A stretch of 63,284 nucleotides of DNA, filler included, from Folioceros fuciformis (taxonomy: Eukaryota), in assembly GCA_049999805.1 (NCBI GenBank). It is 4 parts of 2 records of this genome, joined end to end, with 100 filler letters (N's around TTAATTAATTAA, not from the genome) between each part and the next. Parts side by side here need not be neighbours in the genome. Positions count along the whole stretch, not along the records: positions 1 to 23,010 come from JBNGIO010006379.1; 3 more parts are not named here. One strand, written 5' to 3'. A model generated the notes under the pieces. It saw only the letters and a program-made list of their open reading frames with translations, was not told the DNA's origin and made no database searches. The translations under genes were made by a program, and so were the position numbers. Positions 556-39,051 of the stretch are shown here, piece by piece. Positions within the stretch are counted from its first letter, which is position 1. Each line of letters starts with the position of its first letter.

Positions 556-1587
556 ATGGACGATTACATCATAAGACAAAGATTGGAAATGGACGAAAAT
601 ATTAGAAGACAAAGATTGAAAATGGACAAAATTATTGAAAGACAAAGACGTGAAATGGATATAATTATTCAAAGCCAAAGACGTGGAATGCAAGATATGA
701 TGGAAGCACAAAGACTTGATATGGCCCATCCTATGGGAGAATGGGAAAGGCACGTTATCTTTAGAGAACAAAGGCTCAAAATGGACAATATTATTAACGG
801 ACAAAGATTGGAAATGGACAATATCATCGAAAGTCAAAGATTGGAAATGTATTATTTTATGAAAAGGCAAATCCTAGAAATGGAAGATATTATCAACGCA
901 TCAAGACAAGAAATGAACATTACGATGGAAAGACAAAGACTTAAAATGCAAGATAAGATGGAAAGGCAAAGACTCGACATGATGGAAAGCCAAAGGCTCT
1001 ATATACCTGATAATGATATGACTCAAGTGGTAGATAATATTGATGCAAATGCAAATAGCAAGCTAGGTAATGACCCAATTAACTTAAATAAGGGAACCTA
1101 TTCAAATGAAGAGATGGGTTGCTGCCAATATGATTCAAATATGAAACATGATGTGAATGGAGAGATGCCATTGCATTCTGATCCACATGCTTTGCCGCAT
1201 GTGGCATTTGATCCAAATGAAAGAGCAAATAGATATCATGACCATGACGAGGGGGGTAATAGTAGATATCACGCCCATGACGAGATGGGTCATAGCACAT
1301 ATCATTCAAGTGGCGAGTATAATCTACTTCAAGTAGTACATAATGGCCACTATGGTTCAAATGCTTCATATGATCCACATGAAGAGGAAGAGGAACAAGA
1401 AGAGGAAGAAGATCAGGAAGAGGCTGCCACATACAATCAAAATGGAGAGGAACCTAAAAACCAAAAGCATTGGAATTATACGCACAAAGACCAATATGAT
1501 GCCCCACATAATCCAAATGGAGAGCCAGCTATTGACGAATCAATGCACCGTAATGACCAACACGATGAGATGGTTAATAACAACTAA
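556..1587 (+). CDS. Hypothetical 343-aa protein with 11-aa (33-bp) tandem repeat N-terminus and His/Asn/Glu-rich C-terminus; possibly a pseudogene or TE cargo
   Basis: Units such as MDDYIIRQRLE, MDENIRRQRLK, MDKIIERQRRE, MDNIIESQRLE. The frame reads on past TAA 1585-1587 (CSNNGHDPNPMRHNG) into the gap. Confidence 0.45.
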   Translation: MDDYIIRQRLEMDENIRRQRLKMDKIIERQRREMDIIIQSQRRGMQDMMEAQRLDMAHPMGEWERHVIFREQRLKMDNIINGQRLEMDNIIESQRLEMYYFMKRQILEMEDIINASRQEMNITMERQRLKMQDKMERQRLDMMESQRLYIPDNDMTQVVDNIDANANSKLGNDPINLNKGTYSNEEMGCCQYDSNMKHDVNGEMPLHSDPHALPHVAFDPNERANRYHDHDEGGNSRYHAHDEMGHSTYHSSGEYNLLQVVHNGHYGSNASYDPHEEEEEQEEEEDQEEAATYNQNGEEPKNQKHWNYTHKDQYDAPHNPNGEPAIDESMHRNDQHDEMVNNN

Positions 1588-1734
1588 TGCTCCAATAATG
1601 GCCATGATCCAAATCCAATGAGACATAATGGCCANNNNNNNNNNNNNNNNNNNNNNNNNNNNNNNNNNNNNNNNNNNNNNNNNNNNNNNNNNNNNNNNNN
1701 NNNNNNNNNNNNNNNNNNNNNNNNNNNNNNNNNN

Positions 1735-2012
1735 ACCAATATAACCAACATTATTCGAATTACGTGAATAGACACTAATATAACCAACATTATTTGAATT
1801 ACGTGGATAGACACCAATATAACCAACATTATTCAAATTACGTGGATAGACACCAATATAACCAACATTATTTGAATTACTTGGATAGACACCAATATAA
1901 CCAACATTATTCAAATTACGTGGAAAGACACCAATATAACCAACATTATTTGAATTACGTGGATAGGCACCAATGTAACCAACAATATTAAATATACGTG
2001 GATGGACACCAA
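1735..2012 (+). repeat. 39-bp minisatellite, about 7 copies, runs into an N gap
   Basis: Unit ACCAATATAACCAACATTATTYRAATTACGTGGATAGAC; translates as HQYNQHYSNYVDR. Confidence 0.95.
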
Positions 2013-2201
2013 TAGCACATCTCCTTTAGTCTAATGATTCCTGCTGCTCCTCCTCCGATCACTAGCTGTGAGCAACTTCATATCTTGTGCCAATTGGACT
2101 CCAGAGGTTGCAAGGCAATTAATTGTAGGCCCCTTGGACTCAGCGAGCTGTGGGGTGGCTATAGGCACGCGATTGTTTTAGTTTTTTAGTCGCATCATGT
2201 T

Positions 2202-2454
2202 TATAAATATAATAGAGTTAGGGTTAGGGTCGCATAATTATATAAATAGCTAGTGTTTATTTATTAAGTCCAAACGATGGATAGCTATAGACGCGTCCAA
2301 GGGCCGTGCCCTAAATATTAAACGCCACCCTGACGGGTCATCACAAACAGGTGCCCGCACGCCTTTTAAGGCCACACGGCCCTCAATCAAGCATTCTCTG
2401 TTTTTTTCTCTTCTTGCTTCCATCCCCTCTCGTTCGATCCTACAATCCGCTTCA
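2202..2454 (+). repeat. 5' LTR of copia element (253 bp)
   Basis: TATAAATATAATAGAG...CAATCCGCTTCA. Roughly 90% identical to the 3' LTR by manual count (about 23 substitutions, mostly transitions, and 2 indels). Confidence 0.95.
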
Positions 2455-2466
2455 TGGTATTAGAGC
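2455..2466 (+). promoter_or_regulatory. Primer-binding site, tRNA-iMet type
   Basis: TGGTATTAGAGC directly after the LTR, one C>T from canonical TGGTATCAGAGC. Confidence 0.9.
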
Positions 2467-2469
2467 AAG

Positions 2470-3576
2470 ATGGGCCCAGCCTCCCCTAGCGTTTGCGCGA
2501 TCTGCAGAAGCATAGACTGCATCAAAAACCTGCCTCACTTACATGTCTGGGCAGTGATCGCCGCACTCAAGAAATCGCTGAGCCGCTTTGGGGAGATGGC
2601 TGACTCCTTTCTTGCAAGCGCCGTTGAGCACTACTACAGCGAGTGCGCGTTGCTATGCCAAGATTCAGAGGAAGAGACAAACAGCAGTTCGTCGATCCAT
2701 TCGCGGGTGCGCCAGGAGACTCTGTCGAACTCCAACATCAAAGACTCACCCATTTCTTCAATTCACACTGCAAGAACCTGCACCATCATAGACGCACTGT
2801 CAATCTGTCCGTTCGTCACAAACCTGATGCACTGCATTCTTTACACACACAAATCCAGCAGGAAATTGCACAGGCACGTGAAATCTCTGCTTAGTCTGCA
2901 TGCAGGTTGGCAAGTAATCGCACCTTACTTTGTCAAGATTGCACAAATGATATGAATTCCTATCCCTCACCTGCAACACAAACTCCTGGTCGAGGTGTAT
3001 GAATTAGTAGTAATCTTGCGCAATCACATTGCAGAGTTAACCTCTAGATTCAGCAACACCAACCTCAAAATAGACACTCTAATCTCACAAGTATCTGCTC
3101 TATCCGTCCCTAAAACAATACAACCTGCTTGTGTGCACTGTGGGTCAAGTACCTTACAAGAATCAATCCCACCAGTGGTCAGGAACATGCTAAGTATGGA
3201 GAAAGTCTTCAAGAACGAACTGCAAAGGAAGGAAGCAATTGAACCCTCACAGGTTCACCCACAGTAAAAAGGGTACATGTCAGATGGAGGTCGTGGTGGT
3301 TGAGGCAGCAGACCACATAGAAACCCTCGAAGACCTGGTAGAGGTAGAGGAACTGAACGAAGTAGAAGAAGTGAAGACACAAATGATTCAAATTTAACCG
3401 AAGACTACTTCGACCCCCTCTCCCTTTCACACAATACTGGAGAGTCTAGCACGCGTCCAGCCTTGTCTGCAGCACAACTCACACAGGTTGCTCAGTTAGC
3501 ACAAGTAGATCAAGCCACAAGGGCTGCACTAGCTGCTAGGATAGTGCAAACATGGCAAATCCAGGCGGGGCTGTAA
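2470..3576 (+). pseudogene. Extra 5' reading frame of the copia element (about 365 codons, 3 internal stops)
   Basis: ORFs 2470-2955 and 2995-3267 share one frame that continues to TAA 3574-3576. Stops at 2953, 3265 and 3301 (RGG*GSR). Overlaps the gag ATG at 3552. Confidence 0.5.
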
Positions 3577-5527
3577 CAAATAACACAACAGTCCACAACC
3601 TGAAAATTGACTTTGAAGAAAAAGATTGGTTTTCAGGTTCTCACTTTGATATCTGGGCAATGAGAGTCAAAATAATGCGGGAGAATGGTCTTTGGGAGGT
3701 TGTAAGCGGGCAAGCTCCCAAACCTCCACAAACTGCTTGCCAAGTTGACTAGGATGCATGGGCTAAGCGTGACCTACAGGCACTAGTGGTTATTCAGTCT
3801 GCATTTGACATGTCAATGATGTTGCATACTCAAGATGCAGAATCCATGAAGGCAGTTTGGGACTCATTAACCCAGATATACCAAGTAACGAACGGCAGCT
3901 CCATTGTTCAGTCCACAAGAGCTTTCTACAATTGCCAAAAAAAAGAACATGAGACAGTGGAGCAGCACCTTGCTAAATTCAAGGCACTCACGGCGAGGCT
4001 TACTTCAAGTGGCACGAAAATTGATGAGCTGCAAGCATCGGTTGCCCTCCTTCTCTCTTTGCTAGAAAGCTACCGTACTTTTGTAAGCAATCATAGCTCG
4101 AACCTTCGAGCAACAACAACTGCAACAGCTGCAGGTCAGCCACCAGGAATCTCCTTGTCTGACATGATCGGAGCTCTTCTGGAAGAAAAGTCCACGCATA
4201 AGGCAAGCAGGGGTGGTTCCTCCCATCGAGGAGAGGCCTTAAATAGGGTGCTCTATGTTAAAAGAGGCCCTAGGAAGCCACCACCACGTCAGCCTTGGCC
4301 ATCAACCAACAACACTGCTTACAGAAGACGACCTGCAGCTCGTGGCTCAAAGAAAAAAGGCCCATGTAATTGGTGCATGATACCAGGCCACTTTGAAGCT
4401 GAGTGTAGAAAGAAAAAAATTGGGGAGCCCCGGAGGACTGCCTCACCTGCAGAGATGAACATCGCACAACGTAAGTCCAACACCTTGCTAGTTGTGTGTT
4501 TAGTGTCATCAAAATTAGACAGAGATGCATGGTTCCTAGATTCAGGAGCCTCCGCACACTGCTATCACACTAAGGAAGCCTTTAGTGAATACACAAAACT
4601 ACCACCTGGTCAGACTGTGCTTATGGGAGATGAGAGAGCATGCCCCATAGCTGGGATGGGAATAGTACTAGTGCTGCTGCAAGATAAAACTACCATACAG
4701 CTTCGGGACGTCCTTCATGTCCCATGTGTAGTGAAGAACTCAGTGGCTCTTCTCAAATTTTCCAAACACACACAGCTGAATACCTTCTTCAGTGGCGACA
4801 CCTGCATCATTACAGACCCTAAGTCAAACAACAAGGTCAAAGCTGTAGGAACACCTATTAATGACATCTATAAGCTAGACTTTGCCTCTAAGCTGTGTCA
4901 GCCACACGTCAATGTCAGTCAAGCTGCCCTCCAAAAACAAGATGCCATGCTTTGGCACTGCAGACTTGGTCATGTAAATTTTGACAAGCTAAAGGACATG
5001 GTGAATGCCAACAATCTGTACCGAGAAAAGTTTGTGCTGCGGTGTGCTGACAAACAGTTCTGTGAGGCCTGCATTTTCGGCAAACATCACAGGCAGCCTT
5101 CACAGATGCTAATCCTACAAGAGCTAACAAGATACTGGAGCTTGTGCACTCGGACATATGTGGTCCCATGTCCACAAACACCTTCGGCGGGGCTAAATAC
5201 ATTCTTACATTTATTGATGACTGGAGGAGGTATGTAGTCGTGTACCTTCTTAAGCTGAAGAGCCAGACTTTGGGCTGCTTCCAAGAGTATGTGAGCTTCG
5301 CCCAACGCCAGACTGGGGAGCTCATAAAAACCCTGCGCAGCGACAATGGAGGGGAGTACTATTCAGAGGCATTTATGGATTACTGCAAAGAGCTGGGGAT
5401 ATTAAGGCAACTTACCGTACCTTACACATCTTCACAGAATCCAATTGCTGAACTGACCAATCGACGCCTGCAGGAGATTGCACGCCTGCAGGAGATTGCA
5501 AAGTCCATGCTGAAATTGTCAGGCCTG
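3552..5527 (+). pseudogene. Copia gag-protease-integrase (5' part)
   Basis: CCHC knuckle CNWCMIPGHFEAEC; protease WFLDSGASAH; LWHCRLGH..CEAC..GKH; integrase VHSDICGPM and LRSDNGGEY. Stop at 3750, frameshift near 5100, in-frame 18-bp duplication RLQEIA x2 at 5465-5500. Confidence 0.95.
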
Positions 5528-5677
5528 TGTGGGCAAGCGGGCATGGTATCCCTACCAGGCACCCGCTCACATGTATCGTGGCCACATCAATCCCAAGATC
5601 GTTGTAGGTTTCCCCGGAATTGCTCCCCTCTGAGCCTGGTCAGCTACGTCTATCGCTCCCCTACACAACTCAACTCT

Positions 5678-5881
5678 CCCAACCACGTACCTACCAATTT
5701 GGCCACACGCCCCATCAATAGGTAGGCACCATTCCTTCACTTGGAAGGGCCCCAGTACCTCCCCTACCGATTTCTACCTTCCAATCACGTTCCTACCAAT
5801 CGTGCAACACGTCCCTTGAGTAGGTAGGCACCATTCCTTCACTTGGAAGGGCCCCAGTACCTCCCCTACCGATTTCTACCT
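5678..5881. repeat. 102-bp tandem duplication inside the nested element
   Basis: TAGGTAGGCACCATTCC...GATTTCTACCT identical at 5719-5779 and 5821-5881, with diverged 5' halves. Confidence 0.9.
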
Positions 5882-6147
5882 CCCTACACTCGATACCTTT
5901 TCCTCACAAGGCTCCCTACAACACCTTCCTCTACCCACAATGCCTTTGGCTCAAGTTCTTTGTTCTACTTATATAGGATGGCAGACGGCTTCCTACCTAC
6001 CACTAGCCGCGGCCAGCTTTAACTACGCACACCTACCAAGAGGCTAAGACCTACCAATAGTTGCTAAGGCAGTATGCGCCGATGAAGAGTAGGGCTGTCG
6101 GTGCCGCCATAGAAGATTCGTTGACCCCCTTTTTCAAAAAGGTATGG

Positions 6148-8622
6148 CTAGGATGGCTCTTGAAGGGAGGCAGAGTCTGAAGGTTGAGCCACTGGGCCCC
6201 CCTCCATTATTGGGATTCGTCTTCTTTTGGATCCACAAGCTTCCACCGTACCTTCCTCTGTGTGGATCTCTTGGGCTATCCCTTCACCACCACCTACAAG
6301 TTTGGTAGGGGAGGATTCCCCTTGTTCCTCAACTTGAGGCTCCTTCCCTACGTAGGGTGGGAGTGTTCCCTCCGTAGGTAGGGTACCTACCATTCCTACT
6401 CCTCCTCTCGTAGGTAGGTTCCCTACCCCTCCTCTCGTAGGTAGATTCCCTACGAGAGTAGGTACCTCTTGTTGCGTGCTCTTCCTTGCCCATAGCAGCT
6501 CCTCAGGTTTCCATTGCGAGCTCTCCAGGTCCATACTGTTGTCCTCTTGAAAGTTTGCAGGTAGAGGCATTGTCTCCAGGGCCTCACGATCGTCATCATG
6601 TGGCCCAAGATACCTTCGCCTTGCCAATGCTGCCAGTTCCTTGTGATGAGCGAATAGAAGTTGGTGTAGGTGGAGGTTGCGATTTTGTTGAGCTAGATCT
6701 ATGGTATCCATGTCAATAACCCAATCCCCACTCTCGCATCTACTCTTGTAGATATCCCGTTTAGCCTCCATCGCCCCTACCTTCAATTGTAGGTCAAGGT
6801 TTTCTTGATGAGTTGCATGAAGCTTGGTCATGCACCCCGCCAAGTAGGCATAGTCAGCATGAAACCTACGAGCTCGAACCACCAGCATCCTGTGAATCTT
6901 GGTCTGATGCTCAGCTTCTTGTTGTGCTTTCTCCTGCTGAAGGTCTTCTAATTGGATGGTCAATTGTTCCCTCTCCACTCGCTCTTGTTGCCCTGCTTCA
7001 AGTTGTTGCTGGAGTTCCTGGTTCGCTTTAGAATTCTGTGCCTTCAACTCATCTAGCTTGCCTTATAAATCCTTTGCAACGTAGACTTGTTCCCGTAGCT
7101 GTTCCTCCACCACCTTCCTAGTTTCCTCAGACTGGGCGAGGTCCCTTCGACATGCAATGATCTCATGTGATAAACCTTGTTGGGAAGTTTGCAACGTGGT
7201 CACCTGCTGGGTCAACTTCTCCAGTCCTTGCCTTTGCTCACCATCCTTGAGGAGACACTGTTCTCGCTCCTTTTCCAATTCCTGCACTTTGGATTCTAGT
7301 CGTGCCTGGTTTGCATCCCGACTTATGTCCTCCTGTAGTAGGGTTGCAATCATTGCACGGGCCTCTCCCCAGTTGATGTGTTGTAGCTGTTGGCTACACT
7401 GAATGATGTTGCTCCACACTCCCAACAAAGTATCGTTACCTTGGCTTGTGGCGTGTGCTCCTCAAGCTCCTTCCCAATTCACTGGGCTCCTTCTCCCCAA
7501 ATCTGGTGCTCCACTGTGTGCTTGCACTACTGGTGTCATCGCCAAATCCCCTACCTGGTACCCTACCTCAACTATTGGCTGGCTTGGTCCAGGATCCCTC
7601 ATTGTCTCCATCTCAGTTGGGGCGGAATTTAGGGCTGCGGGGGTGGTGACTGATGGTAGCCTTCGGTCCCTTTGCTGCTCCCTAGGTCTCCGTATCAACG
7701 GGGTGTCATCTTCATCAGAGTCATCATAGGCTGCCATGGCTGATTCGGAATCAAGTGGGGACTCCTCATCCGTAAGAGGGGTCGACACTCCACCGGAAAT
7801 AAAAGCCTCCCCCTGCAACGGGACAACTACAAAAGGTTGTTCCGCCTCCTCCAACTCCTCTTGTGTTAACAACCCTTCTGTCTTCCATAAGTGCACCAAG
7901 TAAGTCGAGAGGTAGCAAGGACTTGCACTCCCACCCTCCCTACCGTTCGGCTTGAGCAACTTCTCCCTGTGGTAGGTATACGCCTCATACATAATTAACC
8001 CCTAGTCTGGCTTGGCTCCTTAAGTCACTCTCCAAAGGAAGTGAAGGAAAGCATTGCTGAAATATGAGGTGCGTTGATAGTTCACCAATCCAAGAACCAC
8101 CTTAGTGAACAACCGCCATTTGAGCTCCTTGATCTTCTCAATCCTCCACCTGTTCTTGGTTCTTGCTAGCTCTCCTCCCAACAACAATTCTAGTGCCCCA
8201 TATGGTAGGGTGGTGCTGGGTGACCTCCGCCCATCTATGGTTTTATCCGGGATCCCAATACCATCGCTCTCCTCTTCCGACCTACCATACACCTGTCAAA
8301 TGCTCCGGACAGTCCAACACCGAGGGTCAGTCCTCGCGTTTCGTTCAGGTAGGGCTTCCAACTCCTCCTTCGATTGCTGTAGGTTGGTATAGCACTCCTT
8401 CACCAAGCCTTCATGAACATACGATCAGTGTCTGCCATATATCTAGTCAAGATGGATGTTTGCGTCACATGCTCAAGTCCGTAGGTCTATCAAATCCCTT
8501 GAGTTCAGTTAGCCCCCAAAGCAAGAAAAGGACGGAACATTGGTTTGGGGAGAGCTGGCTGCCCTCATGGGTCGTCCCCTACTACCGGAACCCACCTGAG
8601 TATTGTTGGAGGTCCGCGCCAT
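6148..8622 (-). pseudogene. About 825-codon decayed ORF of the nested element: globular N-terminal domain, acidic/Pro linker, long coiled coil
   Basis: Four listed ORFs (8020-8292, 7462-7992, 7063-7428, 6148-7047) share one frame, extendable to ATG 8622. Nine in-frame stops (8509, 8473, 8443, 8425, 8296, 8020, 8002, 7462, 7063), no frameshift. Confidence 0.85.
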
Positions 8623-9261
8623 AGTTGATAGAAGAAAACCCCAAGAATGTCGGTTGCCCTCCTTTACGCAAGGTTATACCCCTACCTCTGTAGGCAACTG
8701 CTCCCAGCTTCTGTGCAACTAATTTCATGTCCCTTCCACGTTTCTCCCTATGGCTCTCACCACAGCAAAGCCCTTTCTCTCTCTTTGAGTCCGCTTGGTC
8801 ACAACAAGTAGGTCCCCGGCGTAGGTGTCTTGTCCAACAACTACTTCCTTATTCCCCGCTATGTAGGTAGATGTAGTTCCCTATGTGGAGGTGAGCACCC
8901 TTCGTTGATGGGACACCTTAGGTAGGGACCCCTTTAAATACCCTCTTGTCGTAGGTATACTTCTATATGTAGTAACTGCCCTTAATAGATACCCTACATA
9001 GGTGTCCCCTTTTTTGTAGGTAACTTGCCCTTCACAACTATATTTCTTATTTGGGTACTACCTCCCACAGAGATATCCTCCCTACGTGAGCATACCTCCC
9101 TATAGGTAGCCATCCCAAAGAAGGTAACTTCTTTATAATACTACCCCTTATTATCGCCACTCATCTAACCTACCAAACCAAGACCAAACAAAACTGAAAA
9201 TGTTATTAGCCGCTCCCTACCTACTACGGGTATTTGCCAAAAACCCGCATTCCACAGCCTG

Positions 9262-11566
9262 TCACGTGGTTACTGGGGAGAGGCAGTCTCTACAGTAGTC
9301 TATGTGATCAACAGACTGCCCACAAGTGTGTTAAAGGGATCCACCCCATTTGAGAGATGGACATCACATAAACCAAGAATTAATGACCTTAGAATCTTCA
9401 GGTGCCCAGCATATGCACATCTCTCAGAAGATCAAAGGGTTAAACTAGACTATAAAGCCCGCAAGTTTGTCTTCATAGGGTATATTGAAGGTATAAAAGG
9501 CTACAAGTTGTTTGACCCAGACACTAGATTCATCACACATGCTCGTAGTGTCGTCTTCAATGAGCACATCCTTCTGCATCCCACTAACAAGTCAGTAGAA
9601 GAGACGTCCTCCAGTGAGACCTACAGTCAGCCATATGTAGAAGAACTTGGGTCACAGCCATACCTACCTGTAGCTTCTCATCCAGCTGTCCCTGTCACAC
9701 CACCTCCACCACCTGATGAGCTCAGCACTTTCCGAGGAGATGATCTGGATGGACAGCCAGCTGGGTCAGCAGAAACAGCTGAACAAATGCAAGAGGATCT
9801 GGACCGCGTTGACTCACCTGGTCCCTCCGATGTTTCACCACAAGAAGATGCTGCAGCTCCTTCATAAACCCTACGACGAGGGACAGACCTTGGCACAAGG
9901 AGGCGGAATGGCTGCAGCCACCACTCTCACCTGCCACCTTCATGGTTCAGGATGGGAACCACTTGACATGAGCGAGCCTCTTTCTTACCAAGAAGCAATC
10001 AGTCATCCAATAGAAGGCAAGTAGTGGATGGAAGGAATAAATTCAGAGTACAAGTCATTGGTTGACAACAAGACTTGGGTCCTTGAAGACCTACCTCCTG
10101 AAAGGAAAGCAATAATGTGCAAGTGGGTCTTCAAGAAAAAGTTGAACCCAGATGGATCAATAGCACGCTATAAAGCCAGATTGGTGGCGAAAGGCTACAG
10201 CCAAGTCGAAGGGCTGGACTACACGGAGACATTCTCCCCGGTAGTCCGAGCTACCTCCATCCGCACCTTGCTTGCTTTAGCTGCCCAGTATGACTACAAC
10301 CTGCAACACATGGACGTCAAGACAGCATTTCTTAATGGCAAGCTTGAGGAAACTATCTACATGAAACAGCCTGAGGGCTACATCGACACAAAACACCCCA
10401 ACAAGGTTTGCAGACTGGTAAAAACCATTTACGGTCTCAAAAAATCACCACGTGAGTGGTATAAACGCATAGACAACTATTTGAGAAGCTATGGCTTTGT
10501 TCAGAGTGAAGCCGGTAGCAATGTCTATATGCTACATGATAAAAGTGGGGTCGTTTACTTAGCTTTGTATGTGGACGATGCCATCATAGTCACTAGCAGC
10601 CCTTAGGTCATGGCTAGAGTAAAAGGTTTCCTGATTGCCAAGTTTGACATGTCCGATCTTGGACAGCTGACATTCTTCCTAGGCATACAGATTGTCCAGA
10701 ATCTGTCAAGACACAGCATTTTCCTGCACCAAGCTCAGTTTGTCAGGCAAGTGCTAGCAAGGTTTAGACTGGAAAATGCAAAACCTGCTGCAACTCCTAT
10801 GGCAGTGAGAGACAAGCTGTCCCTTGAGCAGTGTCCTAAAACAGAACAAGAAAGGCTGGAGATGGAGAAAATACCGTACAGGTCGGCAGTGGGAGTATGC
10901 ATATATTTCTGGAACTGGATGAGACCAGAGTTAGCACACTCTATCGGCATCACATCCTAGTTTCTCAGTAATTTTGGAATAGCTCACTGGCATGCTGTAC
11001 AACGTATTCTCCGCTATTTGGGAGGGACCCCAAACATGGGACTCATGTACACCAAGAGACCTGAAAGACTTTTGCTAACCTGTTTATGTGATGCCGACTG
11101 GGCATCAGACACGGCCAGCAGGAAATCCATTTTAGCACATTGTCTAATGCTAGGCAAGGATGAATATAATTCTACTATCATTGCCTGGCACAGCAAAAGA
11201 CAGCAGGTCGTGGCCCTCTCATCTACTGAAGCATAGTACAACTCCACAACAATAGATGCACAAGATATCCTCCATGCAAGACAGCTCCTTGCATCATTAG
11301 AGGAGTAGCAACCTGAACCCACACTTCTGCTTAGTGACAACCAGTTAGCGATTGCATTAGCACAAAATCCAGTAATGCATGCAAGGACAAAGCATATTGA
11401 AATTAAGCATCACTTTATTCGCCAAGTGGTAGCTGAGGGGCATGTAAATTTGCAGTATGTCCCCACTGAAGAGAATGTGGCTGATATTCTCACCAAGGCC
11501 CTGCCAAGAGAGAAGCATGACAAATTTGCTAGGGCAATGGGCCTCGTAATCAACCCAGATGCATAG
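9262..11566 (+). pseudogene. Copia integrase C-terminus, reverse transcriptase and RNase H
   Basis: YWGEAV..INRLP, KGYKLFDP, YKARLVAKGYSQ, HMDVKTAFLNG, LYVDD, DADWA, RTKHIEIKHHFIR, ADILTKALP. Several TAG stops and a frameshift near 9870-9950. Confidence 0.97.
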
Positions 11567-12337
11567 TGGATACAACCACTTGGACAACTAAAACAAAACG
11601 GGCTGCAGTTTCCTATCCAGGCAAGAAACGCCGAGTGGGCATCACCGACGAGCAGCGCCACCAGGGTTCTGTGCACAGTAGCAGAGGGTCAGCTATGGGT
11701 GCAAGGATTCAGCCTGAATGGACAGCAAATGAGCAGCAGGATCCTCACCATATCTGACAATCAGCCGCCCGTCCTCAATGAACTCGCTTCCGGCATACAT
11801 AAGTTTGTCCATGCAATTTGGCAGGTACTTGAACGGAGATCAGGAACAAGTTGGGGCAGTCCATGTGCAATTCGGAGCTTGGAGTACGCCATCTCGAGCT
11901 CCTCCTCCAAGGTAGCTTGCGTCGTAGCAGCATCGCCACCAACACCAGGCAAAGACCAAGGAGGACTGATGTCTCCAGCTCGAGGCCAGCCATCACCCGC
12001 AGCTCGGGGAAACCTAACAGGAGACTGTGGTAATCTTAATGTGATGAAACTTAAGGGTGGTTAGGTGAAGAGTGTTATCAACATATTAAGAAATATAATT
12101 AATTATGTTAAGTCCGCTTACCATTTCATTAGGGTTACGTCTTTTGGCGAATAGACATACCTTTTTATATTAGTTTAAGTTGGACTTACCTGAACATATA
12201 TAGTAATTGTACTTGAAGTTTCTTGACAAGATGTAATTATTTAATATTTTATTATCTAATTAACCTGCACTAAATGCTTGAGTTTATGATAATGGAATCA
12301 AAGTCAAACAATGAATAAACAACTGTCTAAGTGGGAG

Positions 12338-12592
12338 TATAAATATAATAGAGTTAGGGTTAGGGTCGCATAATTATATAAATAGCCAGTGTTTATTAAT
12401 TAAGTCCAAACGATGGATAGCTATGGATGCGTCTAAGAGTCGTGTCCTAAATATTAAATGCCATGCTCATGGGGTCACCACGAATAGGTGCCCGCACGCC
12501 TTTTAAGGCTACACGGCCCTCAATCAAGCATTCTTTCTTTTCTTCTCTTCTTGCTTCCATCCCCTCCTTGTTCCATCCTGCAATCCGCTTCA
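12338..12592 (+). repeat. 3' LTR of copia element (255 bp)
   Basis: Direct repeat of 2202-2454, preceded by the PPT and followed by TSD ATGTT. Confidence 0.95.
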
Positions 12593-15368: not shown

Positions 15369-15504
15369 AAACCCTAATTAACAGCCTCGGGCCGAGGCGG
15401 AGTGGCAGCGTGGCGGTCCAGGTGGCACGCAGGCTGTGCTGCCCGCGCACGGCGGGCAGCGCAGGCTCAGGCGCAGAGGCAAGGAGGCGGGGACTTTTCC
15501 CGCG
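15369..15504 (+). promoter_or_regulatory. Telo-box and E2F consensus site upstream of the TCX gene
   Basis: AAACCCTAA at 15369-15377; TTTTCCCGCG at 15495-15504. Motif match only. Confidence 0.45.
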
Positions 15505-15996
15505 CCCTCCTGCTTCCAAACTTCCCTCGCTTTCCTGCCTCCCTGCTTGCCTGGCTGGCTTGCTGGCCGCCCTGCTTCTGCCATCTCGTCTCTCCCTCGC
15601 CGCTCTGGGCGGCCTCTTCCGCCATCGACCACACTACACTGCCCTGCTACTACTCCACGGGCTCGCTGGGACGCCGGGCATCGCATCGCACTGCATCGTA
15701 GCCGTGTTTGCAGCTCCACGGCTCCCGGCCTGCTGCATTCTTTCTCCTGCGTTGCAATTGCGCCACGGATCCTGCACCTGGATGTCAGCTGCGGGGATGC
15801 CCGGCGCGGCCGCATTTCGGCTCGCCAGGGTTGCGGAGGTTGCCTTGGAGCTCCAGCTGGCATTGGCCCTGCAGGCGTCCCGTGCCGGGTTGGATTTCGG
15901 AGCCTTCGTTGCTGCTGCGCTGCCGCCGAGTTGGCGCTGATCCTATCCCGCCGTGAACCGGACGCCGGGCTCGGCTTAAGCATGGGATACTGAGGC

Positions 15997-18900
15997 ATGG
16001 ACTCTCCGGATAAAAGCCAGCGCATCATAGTTAGCGATGTGCAGGTGATTGGCCTTGGCTCGGGCTTGCTGTCTTCTTGTCCGTTGGGTTGGCCTTCTTG
16101 GAGAATTGCGGCACTGTGGGCTGGGGTGGTCCTGTTTTGTGGGTTTCTGGCTGGAATTGGCGCTATGTGGGTTGCTGCTTTCCTATTGATTTGTGTCGTG
16201 TTGTGGAGCGATGCCTCTTGCGGATCTGACATTGGGAAGAGCTCCAATTCGTGCATTGGACTCCTCTGCTTTCTGCTCTTGCTACGCAGCAGGGAACCCT
16301 AGCGGATTTCATGGCTGCCTGCATTGCGCGTGAATACATGTCGTGCTTCTCTGGTTTCTTGACCTTGGTGTTCGTGGAAAGCAGCTTCTCATGGCTTGTG
16401 GGGCTTAACCGTCTTGTGGGTGCAGGAATCGCCCTTTTATAAGTATCTGTGCGACCTGTCTCCAATCAAGCCAGCCAGACGAGTCCATGTTGCACAAACT
16501 TATTCTGAGCTGAGCTTGCCCCCTCCTCCTGCCGTCTTCTCTTCGCCTCCTCCTAACTCTCGAAAGTCGGCCAGTAGGTTGCGCAGGTATGACCTCTCTG
16601 TCTCTCTCTCTCTGGTAACTGCTGCCGCCTGATCCCTTAACGATCTCTGAACATGCATGTGCTGGTAGGGATGCTCACTGTTACTTCTGCTGGATCTGCA
16701 GTGGCTACGGCTTGGCCAAGACATCAGGGGCCTCAGCAGCCGAGACTGGGTGGGATGATAAGAACCGGCCGCCGTCCCCAGGAACTTTCAACGGAAAGCC
16801 ATCTGATGCAAATGCTGATTCACTGTACACCCGCCATCCTCGGGGCTATGTGCCGTCAAGCAGACCCCCACCGGATCAGAGCCATGGACCTCTCAACAAT
16901 GGTGCTGGAGCCACTGGTTTTATGGGCTCGCCATCCAGGGCTGAGGCGGGAGATGTGGAGTTGTATCTGGCAGATCCAGCCGATGGAGGGCTATATGCGG
17001 TCAGATCGTCAGAAATGCGTAACAGGACTTCTTCTGCCTCGGCTCTCACCTCAACCCTTCCCATTGGCTCCTCCTCTGAGGACGGGGACAAGTGCAGGAG
17101 AAAGGGAATGGTGAGTGCAGCCACTGAGGGCCTTGAGAAGCAAGATGGGCACGATGATCTGCACAACGATGGTGCAAGTGAAGCTAACGATGACGCATGT
17201 GGCTCTCAACGTTTCCACGCAAGGACTTCGGAAGAGCTGTCTCTGATGCTGGACGAGTTGGCAGCACGTCATGCGGACGAAACCACCTCCAGTGAAGTAA
17301 TGACACTCGGGCAGTCACCAGGGCCAGGAGCTATTGTCTGCGCTGTTGCTGATTCTGGAGCCAGCGGTGCCGGGGTCTCCATGGCTGTGGGCGATGAGGC
17401 ATCGGACTTCAGCTTTTTGACTGGAGCACACGACGGGGAAAGTCGTACCAAGCTTGTGCACACTTGGAGCGAGGATGGAGCGGATATTGTCGTCTCCCGG
17501 CTGCCACAGCGTCGCACTTCGGTCTTCCCTAGCAATTCTTCGGATCCTGAAGCCACGCAGGAACATGAACAGAAAATGCAGATGCAGGTATCTGATTTTG
17601 TGGCCTCCAATTCCAAACTTCCTTTAGAAGCCTTCCAGGATGGTATGTCACACGAAGGTATGCGATATGGGAATCTGCCTCAAGATAAAGAGCAAGTCCA
17701 GCAGCAACAGGTGCAGACCAACTGCAGAGTAAGATCCCTACAGTCCGTTTGTTGTTTGCAGCTTTTCTAGGATAGCTGTAGGCGCTAGTGAGTCTTAGCT
17801 GTGTTGTGTTGTGTACCTCAGGTAGCCGTAACTGGGCAAAGAGGCATAAGGAGGAGATGTCTTGATTTCGAGGCAGCAGAAGCACGAAGGAAGAGTATGG
17901 GTAGCAGCGCTTCCAGGAAATGCATCAATTCCAGGGCCAGGGAAGTTGCCTCCGGGGCATCATATCTAGCTTCGGGTGCCAGCATTCCACCTCAAGTCCT
18001 AAGCGATCGAGCAGGTTCGCAGTCAGATGCTACCAATAGTGGCCTGTGTTCACCTCACGAGACCGACATCCAGGCACATGGACCGGGAGCAGGACGTATG
18101 GATCTGCAAGTGAGCAACAAGGTGACCTCCGGAATGATGCGCATGTCTCGGTGCTCTTCGAGCAAGAGCAAGGAAGAGAAGAGCATTGTTGAGCCGTTGA
18201 GGGATGCTCTCAACTCTCCTATGTCCATCAGCATCCCCTCGGGCATTGGGTTGCATCTCAACAGCCTGGCAGGCAGCAGCGTATCTTTCAGCCCCTCCAG
18301 AGGATTCAACTGCAGCATGGGCATGTCGACAGCCTCTCTTCTTGGGCTCACCCCAATGTCGTCTCTCAGGGAAGATTCCACAGATACGTACGATCAGAGC
18401 CTGACCACCCCTGGAGTTTCGGGAGGAAGCATGTCCCTGGTTTCATCCGCAGCGTTTGCGTCAGCTAGCTGTCTGTCCGTGGTCGAGATCACGAGAGAAG
18501 AACAGCAGGATCTCAAGGTGAACGAGGCCAGCATTGTTGGGAATCTCAAATCAACCACCTGCTTCCGATCCCTCACCTTGGGTGTCAAGTCTGTGCAATC
18601 ACGGTATTCGTTGGAGGAGGGTACTGAGAGGAGAGGGAGCCCCAAGCGACTCCTGCCTCACCAGGAGCTTTTGCGACCGGCTGATCTGGACTTGTCTGAC
18701 GAATTTTTCGAGAGCCCTCGAAGTCCTAAGAAACGACGGTAGTTCACTTGTCCTACGCTGAACCGACTATCACTCCTGCATCTGCACTCAGCTTCTCTCT
18801 AAATGCTATTCTCGTCTGAAGTGAATTGTGTGCAACATTAACTTGGTGTTGGTGTGCAGGAAGTCTGCTGCTGTTGGGGAGAAGGCCTCGGAGGGTTGCA

Positions 18901-20946
18901 GGCGCTGCAACTGCAAGAAGTCTAAATGCTTGAAACTGTAAGTGAATGTCACAGGTCACTGAGATTTTTCTTTGCCAGCCAGGCTGGAAGTGGAGTGAAG
19001 GGTTGTTGACACTCACCTGACCTGACCGTTTCATGCACTCGGTACTGGCAGATATTGTGAGTGCTTTGCGGCAGGCATATACTGCGTGGGATCTTGCACT
19101 TGTCAGGATTGCTTTAACAAACCAGAATACGGAGATAAGGTGCTGGAAACTCGGCAGCTGATTGAGTCGCGCAACCCGCTTGCCTTTGCGCCTAAAATAG
19201 TCCATGGAAAGGACACGTCTCCAACATCCGCGGTATGTCAGCTCATCCATGCGAGCATTCCAACCGTCTTGCCTTTTCAAGATCTATCGTTCGGTGATGT
19301 GTGCCGGGGATGGAGGTGCTGATGTGGTGAGGATGTGGCGACGTGCAGGAAGAATTTACAGATACACCAGCCTCCGCCAGGCACAAGCGTGGCTGCAATT
19401 GTAAAAAGTCCTTGTGCCTCAAGAAGTACTGCGAATGCTTTCAGGTAACGAAATGCTTGTTTTACGCAGCGGCTTGAGCGAGAGCTAGCGTACGGGTTGT
19501 AGATGCATGTTGCTCTAATGTCTGATTAAGGGATATGTGTTTGGTGCAGGCTGGTGTGGGGTGCTCAGAAGGGTGTCGATGTGAAGGCTGCCAAAATGTG
19601 TATGGGAAGAAGGAAGGTGGGAAAGCAGGTCTTCCTTTGGCCGTGATGTGTGTGTAGGTGTGATTGCTTGGTTTTTGTTTACGAAGGTGAGGAAGATTGT
19701 GTCTTCTTGTGACGAGAAGTGTTTGTATGTTTCGTGATGAAGCCTGCTCATTCGTAATCACAGTCAGGCTAACAAAGGAGGATGTGGCGATGATGTATCC
19801 ATTCCAGCCTTTTCAGAGGAGCAAGAGGAGCATATGTCGCAAGAGGGACGCGACGAGAGCGAGGTGCAGGAGAACCACAGTTTGGGCAGGCAGCCGAGGT
19901 CAAGCAGCAGGGTGCGAGCAGCAGCGGCCAAGAAAAAGGGCCTGAAGGAAGTGGCAGCAGCAGCAGCAGCAGCAGCAGCAGTGGGGACTCCTTTGCCACT
20001 TAAGTCACGGTCCCCAGTGAAGCCTCCTCGATTGTCCAGAAGCTCCAACCCAAGGTCGAGTGCCGGTAGCGTCCGAAGCCTGGGCCTGTGCCCTAGCCAG
20101 CAGCAGCAAATGTCAAGGCCATCTCCCCAGATGCCCATGAGCTCCCCGAGCCATGTGTCCACCCCCGTGGCCAAGTCTAGAATTGCTATGTTGTCACCCC
20201 GGTGGGATGGGCTAGATGACATCTGTACCCTGACACCCCTCCCCCAGCCTCCTCTCAGACCCACCCCGGCGTCGGTGTCGACCCTCGATAACCGATGTGG
20301 TGCTTCCCCGTCCTTCAACAGGCAATGTCCGGAGCTTGCGAGCAGCTACAGCGGCAGCGGGGCCTCGGGGATAGAGGAGTCGTCCCCAGCCTTGAAGCAC
20401 CCGGACTTCCAGTCCTCTCCTGCAGCCAGATGTGCGTCTAATGTCACCACTGCCAGTGCCAGCCACTTCCAGTCCCCTCATCCGCAAACAAGTCCGGTGA
20501 GCATCCACCCAACTCCCCCCACCCCGTCCCTCTCTTCGTCCCAAAACACCTCCCTGGCAGGCAAGACCTTCTCTGACGCGGGCGTGGTTCCCGCCTACCT
20601 GTCCTTCGACTCTACAGAGGACCTCGACACGCCCGAGATTCTGCGCTACTCGGACGTTCCCCAGTCGCCGCAGGTTCTGACCAAGACCAGCTCTCCCAAG
20701 CAGATCAAGAGAGTCTCCCCGCCCCACTACGACGGAATGGGCAAGCAGTCTGAGCGCGGGTCCGGGCCCGGCTCCGCGAGCAGGAATCGGGTGATGTCCC
20801 CGGGCCCCAGCAACACAGCTGGTGGTACAGGGAGTGGGTCCCCGGGGCTTAGCAGCGGCCGCAAGTACATCCTGCAAGCCCTGCCGTCCTTCCCTTCCAT
20901 GACGCCATTTTCGTCCATACGGGGGGGCCACTTCAACAGTGGCTGA
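15997..20946 (+). CDS. Tesmin/TSO1-like CXC (CPP/TCX, LIN54-like) transcription factor, 9 exons
   Basis: Exons about 15997-16044, 16426-16586, 16702-17728, 17822-18738, 18860-18937, 19052-19232, 19349-19444, 19550-19616, 19817-20946 with consistent phases. Motifs [40 protein letters not shown], hinge [38 protein letters not shown]. Confidence 0.95.
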
Positions 20947-23010
20947 TGCATTAGCGTTTGCATTTGCACTTGCAGGAATCCAGCAGCTTCCAATTCCGAG
21001 CTAGCTAATCTAATATCTAACAAGCCGATGATGACAAGGGCGCGAGCAGCAGCAGCAGTATGCCTCTGGTGTGGGCAACGTCCGGGCTGGCCTTGGGAAT
21101 TTCCAGCGTAGACTAACATGTGGCCACAACAGTAAACTGCGTGTTGAATCATGTCATGCATCCAGGCCTAGCCTGTCAGATTCTATTTATCACATCTGTG
21201 TTTATGCATGGGTAAGAGATACTGAGCAGCTATTGCTGCAGGAGCCGCATGCGGCAAGCCATGTTTGTCCCGACCAGGCCTCGCACGCGCGTCATCGCCG
21301 CTGTCGATGACTGCCGGTGAGGGGTTAATATTGATGGACGCTCGTGTCAGCATGTGGCGACAGCGCAAGCGAGCGAGGAGGCGGACTCAATACAGCAGGA
21401 GTACGTCACTCTGGGACACCTACTGGGACACGAATCCGTATCCACGGCAGCCGGGGCGGGGCTTGGCTGTGCGCAACTACAGTTGGCATGACACCAGCGC
21501 AGGTTCACAGGTACTGCCACAGCCCACTTCCTCGATTGGCTCGGCTGGCCATGGCCTTTTTGGCCCGTTACAGCGTGCTCTGAAGACCAGACCCCAACTT
21601 GGAGAACTGGGTCCGACTTCCTGCTCGGTGCTCGGACCCTGCACCCGAATCTGCCCCGCTTCTTCTCTTTCTGGTACCAATGTTGGCACCCAACAGGAGA
21701 GCACCACCTGCTTTTCTTTCTGTTTCGCTGTAAGGACTCCAGCGAAACAGCAGTCCTTCCTCGCTTACCGTCCTCGCCAGCCCCGCAAGCCTACAGCGGA
21801 GCGCAGCCTACGGGCCTCTACACCCGCTTCGCAGGGGCTTCCCGTGTTTGCCTGTTAGCAGCAGCAGCGGCAGGAGGGTTCGCTAGGAGTCCTCGGCTCT
21901 ACTGGTTTGGTCCGACCTGGGGCCGGGTCGGGTCCCCCGCCACCCTCGGAATCAGCAACCACCGCGATAAAACCCTACCACTTCCTCGTCGTCCGCCGTT
22001 CGTGCTGTCTGGTTGCTTCCGTCCATGAACCCTGCCTCCAAGCATCTTGATGAAGTAATGAAAGATGCAGTGTGCTCCGCTGCCTTGAAGCCAGCCCTCG
22101 CTCTCGGGTTTGCATGGCAACAAAAGTAAGACAATATCAAACACAACTCCGATCGTCGGTGCACGCGCAACAGGACATTCTGTTGTGGCGAGGTTGAGGT
22201 GGAGACGAGTCGAGTTGAGAGGAGATGCGGCGCGGCTCACGATTTCCGGCATAGGATCGTGTGTAGATTTGGAATTGCCTGGATGACCGGTCTGTACCTC
22301 CGACTGCTACAGTGTGAACGCAGATGAGCGCGGTTTTGTGAGTAATAAAAGCCTTGCGGGGCGGCCTTGGTGGACAAGTATGCGACATGGATCATACATG
22401 GCTTTGCCTTGCCTTGCGGCCGTCCTAGGCCCGTCAAGCCCTAACTAAGCTCAAGCACATGCATGCCTGAAGGTAAAAGGCAAGAGCGCGCGTGTGAAAG
22501 GGGGCCAGGTAGGCGGACCGACGACGGGCGAGTGGCATGTATGTACATAACATTCCTACCCTAGAAAACCACCATTTATGGCGGGAAGGGGAAGGGAGAT
22601 TAGCAAGGCCATGGAGCTATCCTGATGCAGCAGCAAAGCATGAAGGAGGAGGGAAGGATGTGATCGCGAAATGGCGGGCCGTCACGTGCCATCCTCGTCC
22701 CTCGATTTGCGTGCCAGCCTAGCTTGGGCTTCACATCCACCAGACTCCGCCTCTCCCCTCCCTGCGCTGTGGCAAATCTGCGGCCTGGAACTCGCGCGCA
22801 CCACAAAGTGCAACCTGTCTTTCCCGCAGCCAGCGCCAGTTCCAGCGCCAGAGGCTAAGAGGAAAGCGCCAGCGGTTAAGAGGAACGCGCCAGCGGCTGA
22901 AAGGAAAGCGCCAATTCCACACTTCACCACTCTGTGACCAGTGCACACCACGACTCATGACTGCAGCCGCAGTAGCAGCCAGTCTGCATCGCAACAGCAC
23001 GGCGCTGTAG

Positions 23011-23110
23011 NNNNNNNNNNNNNNNNNNNNNNNNNNNNNNNNNNNNNNNNNNNNTTAATTAATTAANNNNNNNNNNNNNNNNNNNNNNNNNNNNNNNNNN
23101 NNNNNNNNNN
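23011..23110. other. Scaffold gap with artificial TTAATTAATTAA linker (also at 41044-41055 and 60816-60827)
   Basis: Same six-frame-stop 12-mer centred in N runs three times. Confidence 0.95.
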
Positions 23111-25636
23111 ACCTGCTGCTCTCTCCTTTCGCTGTTGCTGCTTTTGCGTTCGTGCGCTGTGCTCTGCGCTTGCTGCGGCCTGCGCCGGGCTGGGCCGGCC
23201 TCGCTCTCCCCTGCCTCTCCCCCCCTGGCTTCACCCCTGGTCTGCATTTGCCTTCGCCTTTCATTGCCTTTCCTTGCCTTGCCTTGCCTGCCGTCCGCCG
23301 TCATGCCTTAGCCCGACCCTGCGACGTTGCTTGCTCAACACGGCTATGGCACCGCACCTGCTTCTGCCTTGACACCGCGCTCCTCTCTGCCGCCTTCAAG
23401 CCGTGTATCGTATTGTAGTGTAGCGTGGTGGAGAGCGCGTCCAGGTGAAAGAGAGGGAAAGGGCTCCCGGGAGCCACGCGCGCCCGTAATTGCGCTGCCA
23501 ATTTGGTTCGCGAATTGGCTCGCCGGCACGCGGCGGCATTTGGGAGCTGCGGACCCTGTTGCTCGCGGCGCCGGCCTGCTCCTGCTTGGGAGGGAGGGAG
23601 ACGCCAAAGTTTCGGTGAGCCTCTTCTGCGCGCCACTGCCGGCATTGTAACCATTTGTACGGCGCTCACTGCCCTCCACGCTCCTGGTTGATGGGTGTGA
23701 GTAGAGCCGTGTTGTTTCCCAATTCGCTTGCGTTTCTTGCCTCCGGAACATTTACATTCGCTGGACCTACTCTCTAATGCGTGTGGAATTGGCTACGAGA
23801 TTGTGCTCCCGTGTAGGCCCGGACTGCGCTGGCCTAGGCCTCCCCAATTTGTTCTCTCCGCTCCCTGTTTCATCCCCTCTGCCCCTCCCCTCCAACTCGC
23901 TCCTTTCAGTCTCTACGGAGGGGCACGGTCGGAAGGAAACGAACGCCTCTCGTCGTCGTGCGTCCCCCGTCTCGCTCTGTTTCCTTCTTACTGTGCTTGC
24001 TTTCTCTCTGCGTCCTCATGAATTAATTACCTCACCTCGGGTCACTCCGCTGTTTGAGATTGAGACACCGCATGCAGCGGACGCCTGTCATTGCCTTCCC
24101 GGGTGTCTCACCCCGGCTTTCACCACTTTGATTGCCTTGTCCTCGAGGGCCTTCCTCCTCCGCATCGTACTGCCACCGGGTCATGTTGTCTGATCGCGCG
24201 CCATCCTCCGGGTGTGCGCTTTTGGCGTGTTACGGGAGAACGTTTGTCGCACCACGTTTCTCACTCCTGGAGGAATGCTTTGAGAGCTACTTGTCTCACA
24301 ACGCCAGTTACGTTCAACTCGCCCGCGCTGAGAAATCTTTATTTGTGTGTGTGTCCAGCTTGTGCAGAGACCGCCGTGCTCCCCACCTCCTCTAGCGAAG
24401 CTGGAAGGAACTGATTTGGGTTCTCGAGGGACGGTAATTGGGTACATCAACAAGCTGGGCACATCTCTGCTGCGGGGAAGCCTCTTTTTCCGGTCCCGGT
24501 GTCGTGGCAGGAGTGTCGGCATGGAAATGTCAGGCTGCGGCTCGTCTTGCGTTTATCTTCGGGACAGCAGTAGATGAGAGGCCCCGAGGACCTTTGTCTC
24601 AACGTTTCTAACAGGAAGCCAGGCAGGAATGGATCAGAGAGAGAAGTGAAGTGGGGCATTAGGGAGGAAAGGAGGAAGAAGACGTCTGGATTAAGAGGAA
24701 AGGACCATCAAAGTGGCGCCAGTTTCGGTAGCGAGCTTGAACCGCCAGATGCATCGGCACGGGAGGGGTGGAGTATAACCTCCTCTTTACAGAACCTTGA
24801 TGTAGCTGCTATTGGCAGAGAGTTGGTGTTGTGCTCTTTGGCTCCACTTTCACAAGTTGAAGCTGCTTCACCAGTTCAAGGCACCGCTGTCCATCCTCAC
24901 GCTTCTTCTGTCAGTCGTAAGAGCTGCCAGGAGGCCTTGACTAGCTTGTCAGATTGCACTTTCTTAACTCAAAGGCCAGAGCTGTGGCAGATTTTGCTTA
25001 CAAGGCAAAGGGAGCATATTTGGGGAGCTCGCTGCCACTTCCAGAAGCACGGGAGAAGGCTGCTGCAAGCGTGGTATGAGACACTTAACTTACATTGCCA
25101 TGGGGAGGGGAGGTTAGGAAGGGAGGCCGGTTGGCAGATGATAACGGACAGGTCTAAAGTATTTGTGTTGCTTTTGGCTGTTGCGTGGAAAGTTCTTCCT
25201 CTTTTGCCGAGGCAGGGCATTTCAGTTGTGAGCTGATGCCCATGTGAGTGGGGCATCGGAAAGGGGGTCTATGGCATTTGCCACCCTCGGTCTTCTGATA
25301 CTGTAGACTATCTATTCAAGCTAACCTGGATTTTGATATCGACTACTGTTCTGTGAGAATTGGTGGCTCTAAAGGGTGAGGCCAGAGAGGCTGAAGCTTG
25401 TGGGAGGAGGGAGAGCTTCCAGGGAGAACGTGTCTGCCCTACGAGGTATGAGAGTGCCCAAGCATAGCTTCTTCATGAGGTGGACCAGACATATCCCCAG
25501 CATAGTGTTCTTTTGGTCCACTCAGCCAACGGGCCGGAGCAGCAGCAGTTCAACCCTTTCCACTTCAGCTCAGGCGGAGGCTCTCGCAGATTTCGTATCC
25601 TTCGTCATCGAGGATTTGCACCAGGATAACGTTGTC

Positions 25637-38760: not shown

Positions 38761-39051
38761 AGTAGTACACTCTTATAGCCTATCACTACAAGTAATAAAG
38801 TCAAGTCTCAAGTTATACACTCTTTAATCCTATCACTACAAATATAACATGCATTATATTGTATAGTGCCAAAATACTGGCCAAGGCTGCTTGCCCAGCA
38901 CAAGCACGTGGGCTCACATAGCTCATGTAAAGCAACTTGGTGATGATCACCAAACATGGAGCCAACATGGCGATGGAGAAAACCAGTTGTCCAAGTTTCT
39001 CGTTAGAGGAACTACAGGAAAACGTAATTCCCTTTGTTGTGCACTGGCCTT

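Follow-up and report, generated by a model that had tools for sequence, protein, structure and literature searches.

A 3729-bp insertion in a copia element of Folioceros fuciformis, probably a solo long terminal repeat with the relic of a large reading frame

The stretch of DNA analysed here (the window; 63,284 nucleotides, filler included) was taken from the genome assembly of Folioceros fuciformis (GCA_049999805.1) and consisted of four parts of two records, with 100 filler letters between each part and the next. Positions are counted along the window, and positions 1 to 23,010 come from JBNGIO010006379.1. In this part, a Ty1/copia retrotransposon was found to be interrupted in its integrase by an inserted element of 3729 bp. 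The element is probably a solo long terminal repeat (LTR) from an abundant family whose LTR is unusually long, and it contained the relic of a large open reading frame (ORF).

Organization of the locus

The following features were found around the insertion.

2202-12592, plus strand: host Ty1/copia element, interrupted in the integrase by the insertion and recognized from its LTRs, a sequence like a primer-binding site (PBS) and Pfam domains
5523-5527: left copy of the target-site duplication (TSD) GCCTG, from direct reading and empty-site contigs
5528-9256 (3729 bp), sense strand probably minus: inserted element with TG..CA ends (direct reading), interpreted as a solo LTR
5528-5541, plus strand: left terminal inverted repeat TGTGG-N4-GCGGG, from direct reading, unique within the window
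9244-9256, minus strand: right terminal inverted repeat, TGTGG-N3-GCGGG as reverse complement, from direct reading, unique within the window
9257-9261: right copy of the TSD GCCTG, from direct reading and empty-site contigs

The host copia element contained LTRs at 2202-2454 and 12338-12592, which were 90% alike (Kimura two-parameter distance 0.099 over 252 sites), and the 5′ LTR was followed by the PBS-like sequence TGGTATTAGAGC. The Pfam domains gag, Pol beta-barrel (protease-barrel) and pre-integrase were found within 3753-5237 and the integrase core (rve) within 5066-5527, followed by the presence of an SH3-like domain at 9259-9867 and RVT_2 at 10025-10606 on the other side of the insertion. 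At the grass substitution rate of 1.3e-8 per site per year, the divergence of the host LTRs sets an upper bound on the age of the nested insertion, which is under roughly 4 million years.

The inserted element was found to start with TGTGG and to finish with CCACA. Its inverted termini were imperfect and contained five perfect bases followed by an offset 5-mer (the inner blocks GCGGG and CCCGC). Logan contigs of the same organism were placed on window positions 4500-10300 at a likeness of at least 80%; the contig sets X1 and X2 belong to the same sample and X5 to another sample. One contig each in X1, X2 and X5 joined 5522 directly to 9257 and skipped 3734 bases, that is, the 3729 bases of the element and 5 more. 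The site is thus uninterrupted, with one GCCTG, in other copia copies of the organism. Since contigs of the same organism join 5522 to 9257, the limits of the insertion are more than a chance arrangement. The copia integrase frame was continuous across the site once one GCCTG was removed. A clean insertion with the 5-bp TSD GCCTG and imperfect inverted termini had been claimed in the original prediction, and both points were borne out.

A 5-bp TSD with TG..CA ends is the standard footprint of an LTR. The inverted termini of 5 + 5 bases and the 5-bp TSD would also suit a cut-and-paste transposon (class II) that is non-autonomous and ends in short terminal inverted repeats. However, the inverted repeat contained only five perfect bases and an offset 5-mer, no transposase family was found by Pfam in any frame of the element (ORFs of at least 70 aa), and we know of no plant class II superfamily that combines 5-bp TSDs with TG..CA ends. 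A class II origin is thus very improbable.

The copia integrase was also found to contain a perfect 18-bp tandem duplication at 5464-5499, 24 bp to the left of the insertion site, which is in frame and doubles six residues. This duplication was missing from at least one other copia contig (an X5 record with 18 gaps; differing place 5466). Just upstream of the copia 5′ LTR, tandem repeats with a period of about 78 bp and units 91-93% alike were found at 1735-2014, beside an N run at 1635-1734, and a weaker tandem repeat was found further upstream at 542-981.

Anatomy of the inserted element

Within the element, the following features were found, given from the left to the right end.

5679-5881: 102-bp unit in two tandem copies, 90% alike (blastn and Tandem Repeats Finder, TRF)
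5975-5969, minus strand: canonical TATA box (TATATAA) from the pattern scan, about 440 bp from the 5528 end, proposed core promoter of the LTR
6151-8001, minus strand: codons 209-825 (about 617 codons), the stretch of the decayed ORF that is well supported; first Met at 7992, stop codon at 6150-6148
6395-6453: 27-bp unit repeated 2.2 times, within the C-terminal part of the ORF (TRF)
8002-8622, minus strand: possible N-terminal extension of the ORF with an ATG at 8622, codons 2-208, statistically not coding-like in this copy
8940-8933, minus strand: TATA-like sequence TATTTAAA from the pattern scan, about 310 bp upstream of the ATG at 8622, putative promoter

No second copy of the element was found in the window by blastn (word sizes 11 and 7) or tblastn, which gave the self match and the tandem duplication of about 102 bp only. 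With up to 3 mismatches allowed, the first and the last 19 nt of the element had no further occurrence in the window. In Pfam, neither the long frame nor any of the 13 other ORFs of at least 70 aa matched a family above the cut-off. The pattern scan found no PBS motif for Met-tRNA in the element, and Rfam gave 0 matches on the element, so that it contained no 5S RNA, tRNA or ribozyme as present in Cassandra or retrozymes. The lack of paired LTRs in the insertion, the lack of reverse transcriptase, integrase and gag motifs and the presence of two TATA-like boxes, all of which had been noted beforehand, agreed with these searches and with the pattern scan.

The copy number of the 102-bp unit differed among family copies (contig joints 5698->5862 and 5930->5808), and the 27-bp array was a hot spot for joints in other copies (6448->6395 and 5594->6395), followed by the presence of loose ends at 6395 and 6453.

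The ratio of observed to expected CpG was 0.46 in the element versus 0.61 in the window. The hexamer CCTACC/GGTAGG was concentrated in the element, with 28 of the 61 window occurrences within 6% of the window length; it was often present as (C)GTAGGTAGG and may either represent a binding-site motif or simply result from the repeats.

Copy number, depth and family diversity

Summed contig depth in X1, which is not equal to copy number, was found to be 625-6104 in the bins of the element versus 48-246 in the copia flanks. In the same set 1354 contigs were placed, with 324, 390, 409 and 231 in the likeness classes of 99% and above, 95-99%, 90-95% and below 90%, respectively. The element belongs to an abundant family of mixed age. 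The differences among contigs were mostly transitions, as expected of methylated repeats. In a further set, X3, the differences were mostly G>A (259 places) and C>T (106), a pattern that suggests a bisulfite-converted library made from the same sample.

The depth was not uniform along the element. The left 900 bp (5528-6440) were 3-5 times deeper than the remaining 2.8 kb in X1, and the depth over 8574-9155 was equal to that of the ORF region, so that the right end was no deeper than the ORF. Loose ends of variant contigs were found at 5941 (4 contigs in X1 and 3 in X2), where the sequences diverged about 30 bp downstream of the TATA box at 5975-5969. Deleted variants of the family were also present, with joints 5594->6395 and 7269->8859. 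Diverged copies, 85-93% alike, kept the same order across both ORF ends: record 9 covered 5947-6192 with 18 other letters, and records 7 and 14 covered 8593-8948 and 8593-8962 with 45 other letters. Because such diverged copies keep the same order, the arrangement is old and propagated, and not private to this copy.

These results bear on the possibility that a full LTR retrotransposon copy was inserted here and was later rearranged or deleted internally, leaving parts of both LTRs around an internal accessory ORF. The deleted variants and the greater depth of the left 900 bp, as of an LTR against an interior, would fit such a history, and in plants accessory ORFs are normally internal according to a review of them (PMC7264820). 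One deletion running from the 5′ LTR into the interior, however, would leave the 3′ LTR whole and with it a repeat of the retained 5′ piece, and no such repeat was found with the 19-nt ends at up to 3 mismatches or by blastn at word size 7. Such a history would take either a retained 5′-LTR stub of less than about 15 bp or a pair of matched deletions. Depth at the right end did not exceed that of the ORF region, and the order shared by copies 85-93% alike again points to an old, propagated arrangement. The scenario of short LTRs with the ORF between them, which the original prediction had named as its own refutation, is accordingly disfavoured, as the ends were unrepeated inside and the order was kept in diverged copies; it is held to be improbable.

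A hidden short LTR start inside the element was also considered and was rejected, since the 5-mers TGTGG and CCACA (for instance, near 6234 and 8884) were present at chance level and lay off the depth step near 6440.

The decayed reading frame

The minus-strand frame at 8625-6148 contained 10 stop codons overall versus 25-45 in the other five frames; in 2000 shuffles, the mean was 41 stops and the minimum 20. Nine of the stops were internal and were found at codons 39, 51, 61, 67, 110, 202, 208, 388 and 521. The single gene of about 825 codons (8622-6148) of the original prediction is therefore not open in this copy, although its codons 209-825 were found to be coding-like.

The two parts of the frame differed in their statistics. 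Codons 209-825 contained 2 stops versus 30.3 expected, with none of 3000 shuffles as low, and showed a G-rich first and an A-rich second codon position. Codons 1-208 contained 7 stops versus 10.7 expected (p about 0.15), showed no codon-position pattern and were indistinguishable from non-coding DNA. A chance frame caused by strand composition was rejected by the stop statistics for codons 209-825, but not for codons 1-208.

For two of the stops, at codons 39 and 110, a sense codon was present in all, or in nearly all, of the other non-bisulfite contigs (6 and 6 contigs in X1; 4 and 3 contigs in X2); these two were the stop places, out of the nine, that lay among the differing places listed (40 of 771). 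Because sense codons are present there in other contigs, the frame of the family is more open than that of this copy. With its nine internal stops, the gene is dead in this copy and the unit is inert.

Predicted product and its relatives

In a single-sequence AlphaFold2 model, residues 389-825 contained helices of about 100, 110 and 34 residues at a predicted local distance difference test (pLDDT) score of 60-80 (mean pLDDT 56.7), followed by a disordered tail of about 150 residues with a basic KRRR cluster near the C-terminus. The model of residues 111-388 was unusable (mean pLDDT 41.5), and residues 260-390 were acidic and rich in proline and serine. In Pfam, only sub-threshold coiled-coil families were found on the frame. 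The predicted product thus appears to be an orphan protein with long helices and with disordered acidic and C-terminal parts.

A protein atlas search with an unbroken piece of 179 residues gave no usable match. In the scan of metagenomes with a protein pattern, 261 stretches were matched and none was confirmed, and an exact 26-mer was found 0 times; in the scan of viral contigs, 9 stretches were matched and none was confirmed.

Solo LTR reading and the points that weigh on it

The element is interpreted as a solo LTR because of its TG..CA ends, the 5-bp TSD, the short inverted termini, the lack of an inner LTR, PBS or pol, the high copy number and the presence of a TATA box about 440 bp from one end. 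The candidate gene-carrying solo LTR that had originally been predicted is therefore kept in one part and revised in the other: a solo LTR is still the likeliest reading of an element with such ends, such a TSD and no interior, whereas the gene in it is a decayed relic, of which about 617 of the 825 codons are supported. A full element would have been integrated at this site and would have made the 5-bp duplication, and its two LTRs would then have recombined to leave the solo LTR.

Several points weigh against this reading. The window contained one copy of the element, and the Logan contigs, at 150-1100 bp, are too short to show pairs of LTRs. A polyadenylation-type AATAAA was found by the pattern scan in neither candidate R-U5, that is, near neither end. 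The excess depth of the left 900 bp may also be caused by the two tandem arrays or by sharing with unrelated repeats. As codons 1-208 are not coding-like here, the link between the upstream TATA-like box and the ORF is weak. No match was obtained by HMMER with the N-terminal 400 residues against 1.84 billion representatives, and a search of proteins of near length found no relative among 7998 scored candidates, nor was any found among 3450 shorter proteins; frame statistics are the one ground on which a functional family gene is proposed. In the literature, no LTR that encodes a gene had been identified up to 2010 according to a review of that year (PMC2851119), and the additional ORFs of plant elements are placed by another review in the internal region and not in the LTRs (PMC7264820). 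Since these reviews place additional ORFs internally and know of no gene-encoding LTR, the prior for a coding LTR is low. Among the papers listed by the literature search, none described a protein-coding gene within the LTR of a plant element, which is not proof that none exists.

The blank protein searches are weak evidence, because a control with the gag-protease-preintegrase part of the host copia element found 13 proteins, of which the best were 38% identical over 77% of the query and 64% identical over 34%; the libraries thus cover the relatives of this plant poorly.

Orientation of the LTR and position of the gene relic

The sense strand of the LTR is more likely the minus than the plus strand. 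The minus strand is favoured because the canonical TATA box lies 440 bp from the 5528 end, because contigs diverge at 5941, about 30 bp past this box, where the border between the unique 3′ region (U3) and the repeated region (R) would fall, and because the deep part at 5528-6440 fits subfamilies which share the promoter, R and the unique 5′ region (U5) but differ in the distal U3. These three points are hints and not proofs.

With the minus strand as sense strand, U3 would extend from 9256 to about 5945 and would contain the relic of a large gene, which would start at 8622 or 7992, end at 6148 and have encoded a protein with long helices of the coiled-coil type. The gene relic would be followed by the TATA box at 5975-5969, by a U3/R border near 5945 and by an R-U5 of about 415 bp ending at 5528. 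In the full element, the gene copy belonging to the 3′ LTR would be located at the 3′ terminus of the genomic RNA and might be expressed from a subgenomic message or from a promoter of its own upstream. The gene could have come to lie in U3 if the plus-strand primer site, the polypurine tract (PPT), had shifted upstream; an accessory ORF between pol and the 3′ LTR would then have been taken into the LTR and copied into both LTRs. Such a shift would be a simple route into U3 whichever orientation holds.

A solo LTR with a plus sense strand was also considered, in which the ancestral LTR would correspond to the right 600 bp (about 8650-9256) and the ORF to an antisense accessory gene of the Retand/Grande/RIRE2 type from between pol and the 3′ LTR, absorbed together with the neighbouring tandem repeats. 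Retand is described with LTRs of 315-1194 bp and a region of 2.9-6.6 kb between POL and the 3′ LTR that contains antisense ORFs and tandem arrays (PMC11963269). The layout found here, with tandem repeats followed by a backward ORF and by about 630 bp ending in CA, mirrors this region together with the LTR, and the long helices of the ORF have a counterpart in the Smc-like coiled coils reported for some Retand antisense ORFs (PMC11963269). On the plus strand, 8933-8940 was likewise TATA-like (TTTAAATA). However, the Transposase 28 domain TRP28 (PF04195), which is reported from 61 of 63 Retand clusters (PMC11963269), gave no match at E<=1 with the whole frame or at E<=10 with the N-terminal 260 residues, where decay lowers the sensitivity. 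The depth over 8574-9155 was that of the ORF and gave no sign of a separate, commoner short LTR, and the excess depth was at the opposite end, which would then be the distal U3 and usually the most variable part. A plus sense strand is accordingly considered unlikely, but less so than the rearranged copy discussed above.

Comparison with known elements

LTRs of about 5 kb exist in plants: the LTR of the barley LARD elements, which is of this length and has a central region that varies between copies, was initially observed as a solo LTR within the copia element BARE-1 (PMC2851119). As far as they are described there, the LARD LTRs and the present unit share a length of several kb, LTR-type ends, a lone copy nested in a copia element, high copy number and the lack of gag and pol. 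Set side by side by description, they differ in that the LARD LTRs are given as non-coding (PMC2851119), whereas the present unit holds a frame relic of 617-825 codons.

Revolver of rye and other Triticeae is described as an element of 2.9-3.0 kb with inverted repeats at its ends and one transcribed gene, both ends being about 60% like LARD LTRs (PMC2851119). It shares with the present unit a size of about 3 kb, the inverted ends, the single gene, the high copy number and the presence of structural variants without the 5′ part. By description, the Revolver gene contains three exons and encodes 139 residues (PMC2851119), whereas a single frame of 617-825 codons, dead and without any sign of a frame change, is present here.

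Revolver is also the described precedent (PMC2851119) for an LTR-less non-autonomous unit, a 'transposon-like gene', whose TG..CA ends would be used by the integrase of a retro-element in trans. The single ends, the self-contained layout of TATA box, ATG, ORF and stop codon and the high copy number would suit such a unit. But a unit without R repeats, PBS and PPT has no known replication route to linear DNA with integrase-ready ends, a solo LTR leaves an identical footprint and solo LTRs are common, and the likeness of the Revolver ends to LARD LTRs fits an LTR origin. Nothing observed separates the two. For the LTR-less unit moved by integrase, which the original prediction had offered as its alternative, no evidence was found, and its probability is set low.

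The additional ORFs of plant elements, both the antisense ones of Retand, Grande and RIRE2 and the env-like sense ones, share with the present ORF their nature as large orphan ORFs next to the 3′ LTR with tandem repeats nearby, as far as the sources describe them (PMC7264820, PMC11963269). Smc-like coiled coils and a suspected nuclear role are given for some of them (PMC7264820, PMC11963269), and the present ORF contained long helices and a KRRR cluster. They differ in position: the described ORFs lie outside the LTR, between pol and the 3′ LTR (PMC7264820, PMC11963269), whereas the present ORF lies inside a unit bounded by TG..CA ends and the TSD, and TRP28 was undetected in it.

Genes in or overlapping U3, at the 3′ end of the genomic RNA, are present in mouse mammary tumour virus (MMTV sag) and human immunodeficiency virus (HIV nef). 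If the solo LTR reading with the minus sense strand holds, the present unit would share their topology, with a coding frame that is part of U3, is thus carried by each of the two LTRs and stands at the 3′ terminus of the genomic RNA. Both are retroviruses of animals and their proteins are unrelated; the comparison concerns layout alone, and homology is not claimed, nor was any found.

A further step, which is considerably more doubtful than the solo LTR itself, is that the LTR of the family carried a complete accessory gene in U3, gained by the shift of the priming site, for a protein of 600-800 residues that contained coiled coils, an acidic linker and, at its C-terminal end, a cluster of basic residues. 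Just as tentatively, such a family would hold two copies of the gene in each element and one in each solo LTR, as a plant counterpart of the retroviral genes encoded in U3.

Other features of the window

Open frames resembling host genes were found by Pfam at three places; in the analysis their domains were taken to indicate a flowering plant.

25373-26734: F-box and KIB1-4 beta-propeller, 453 aa
41048-43483: C2H2 zinc finger, 811 aa, beginning right after an N run
47625-48638: RING-H2 finger, 337 aa

At 38993-39201 and 40600-40807, two direct repeats (about 210 bp each) were found at a distance of 1.6 kb and with a likeness of 77%; they may be the LTRs of a small old element. In the G+C-rich region 15378-21000 (54-60% GC), several long frames reached 300-400 aa and matched no Pfam family. 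The N-run patterns at 23011-23110, 41000-41099 and 60772-60871 were identical and each contained two runs of 44 N with 12 bases between them, and 100-N runs were present at 1635-1734 and 35186-35285; in the analysis all of these were read as masked sequence or gaps in the record.

Significance

If full-length relatives were found to have short LTRs with the ORF between them, the present element would be an ordinary rearranged copy. If the LTRs of this family do carry the gene, the accessory genes of plant retrotransposons would not be confined to the interior of the element. Each element would then contain the gene twice and any solo LTR would retain a copy, and thousands of copies equipped with a promoter would be spread across the genome. 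The shift of the primer site would then be a concrete route by which LTRs grow to several kb, and the origin of single-gene repeats or 'transposon-like genes' such as Revolver would be explained.

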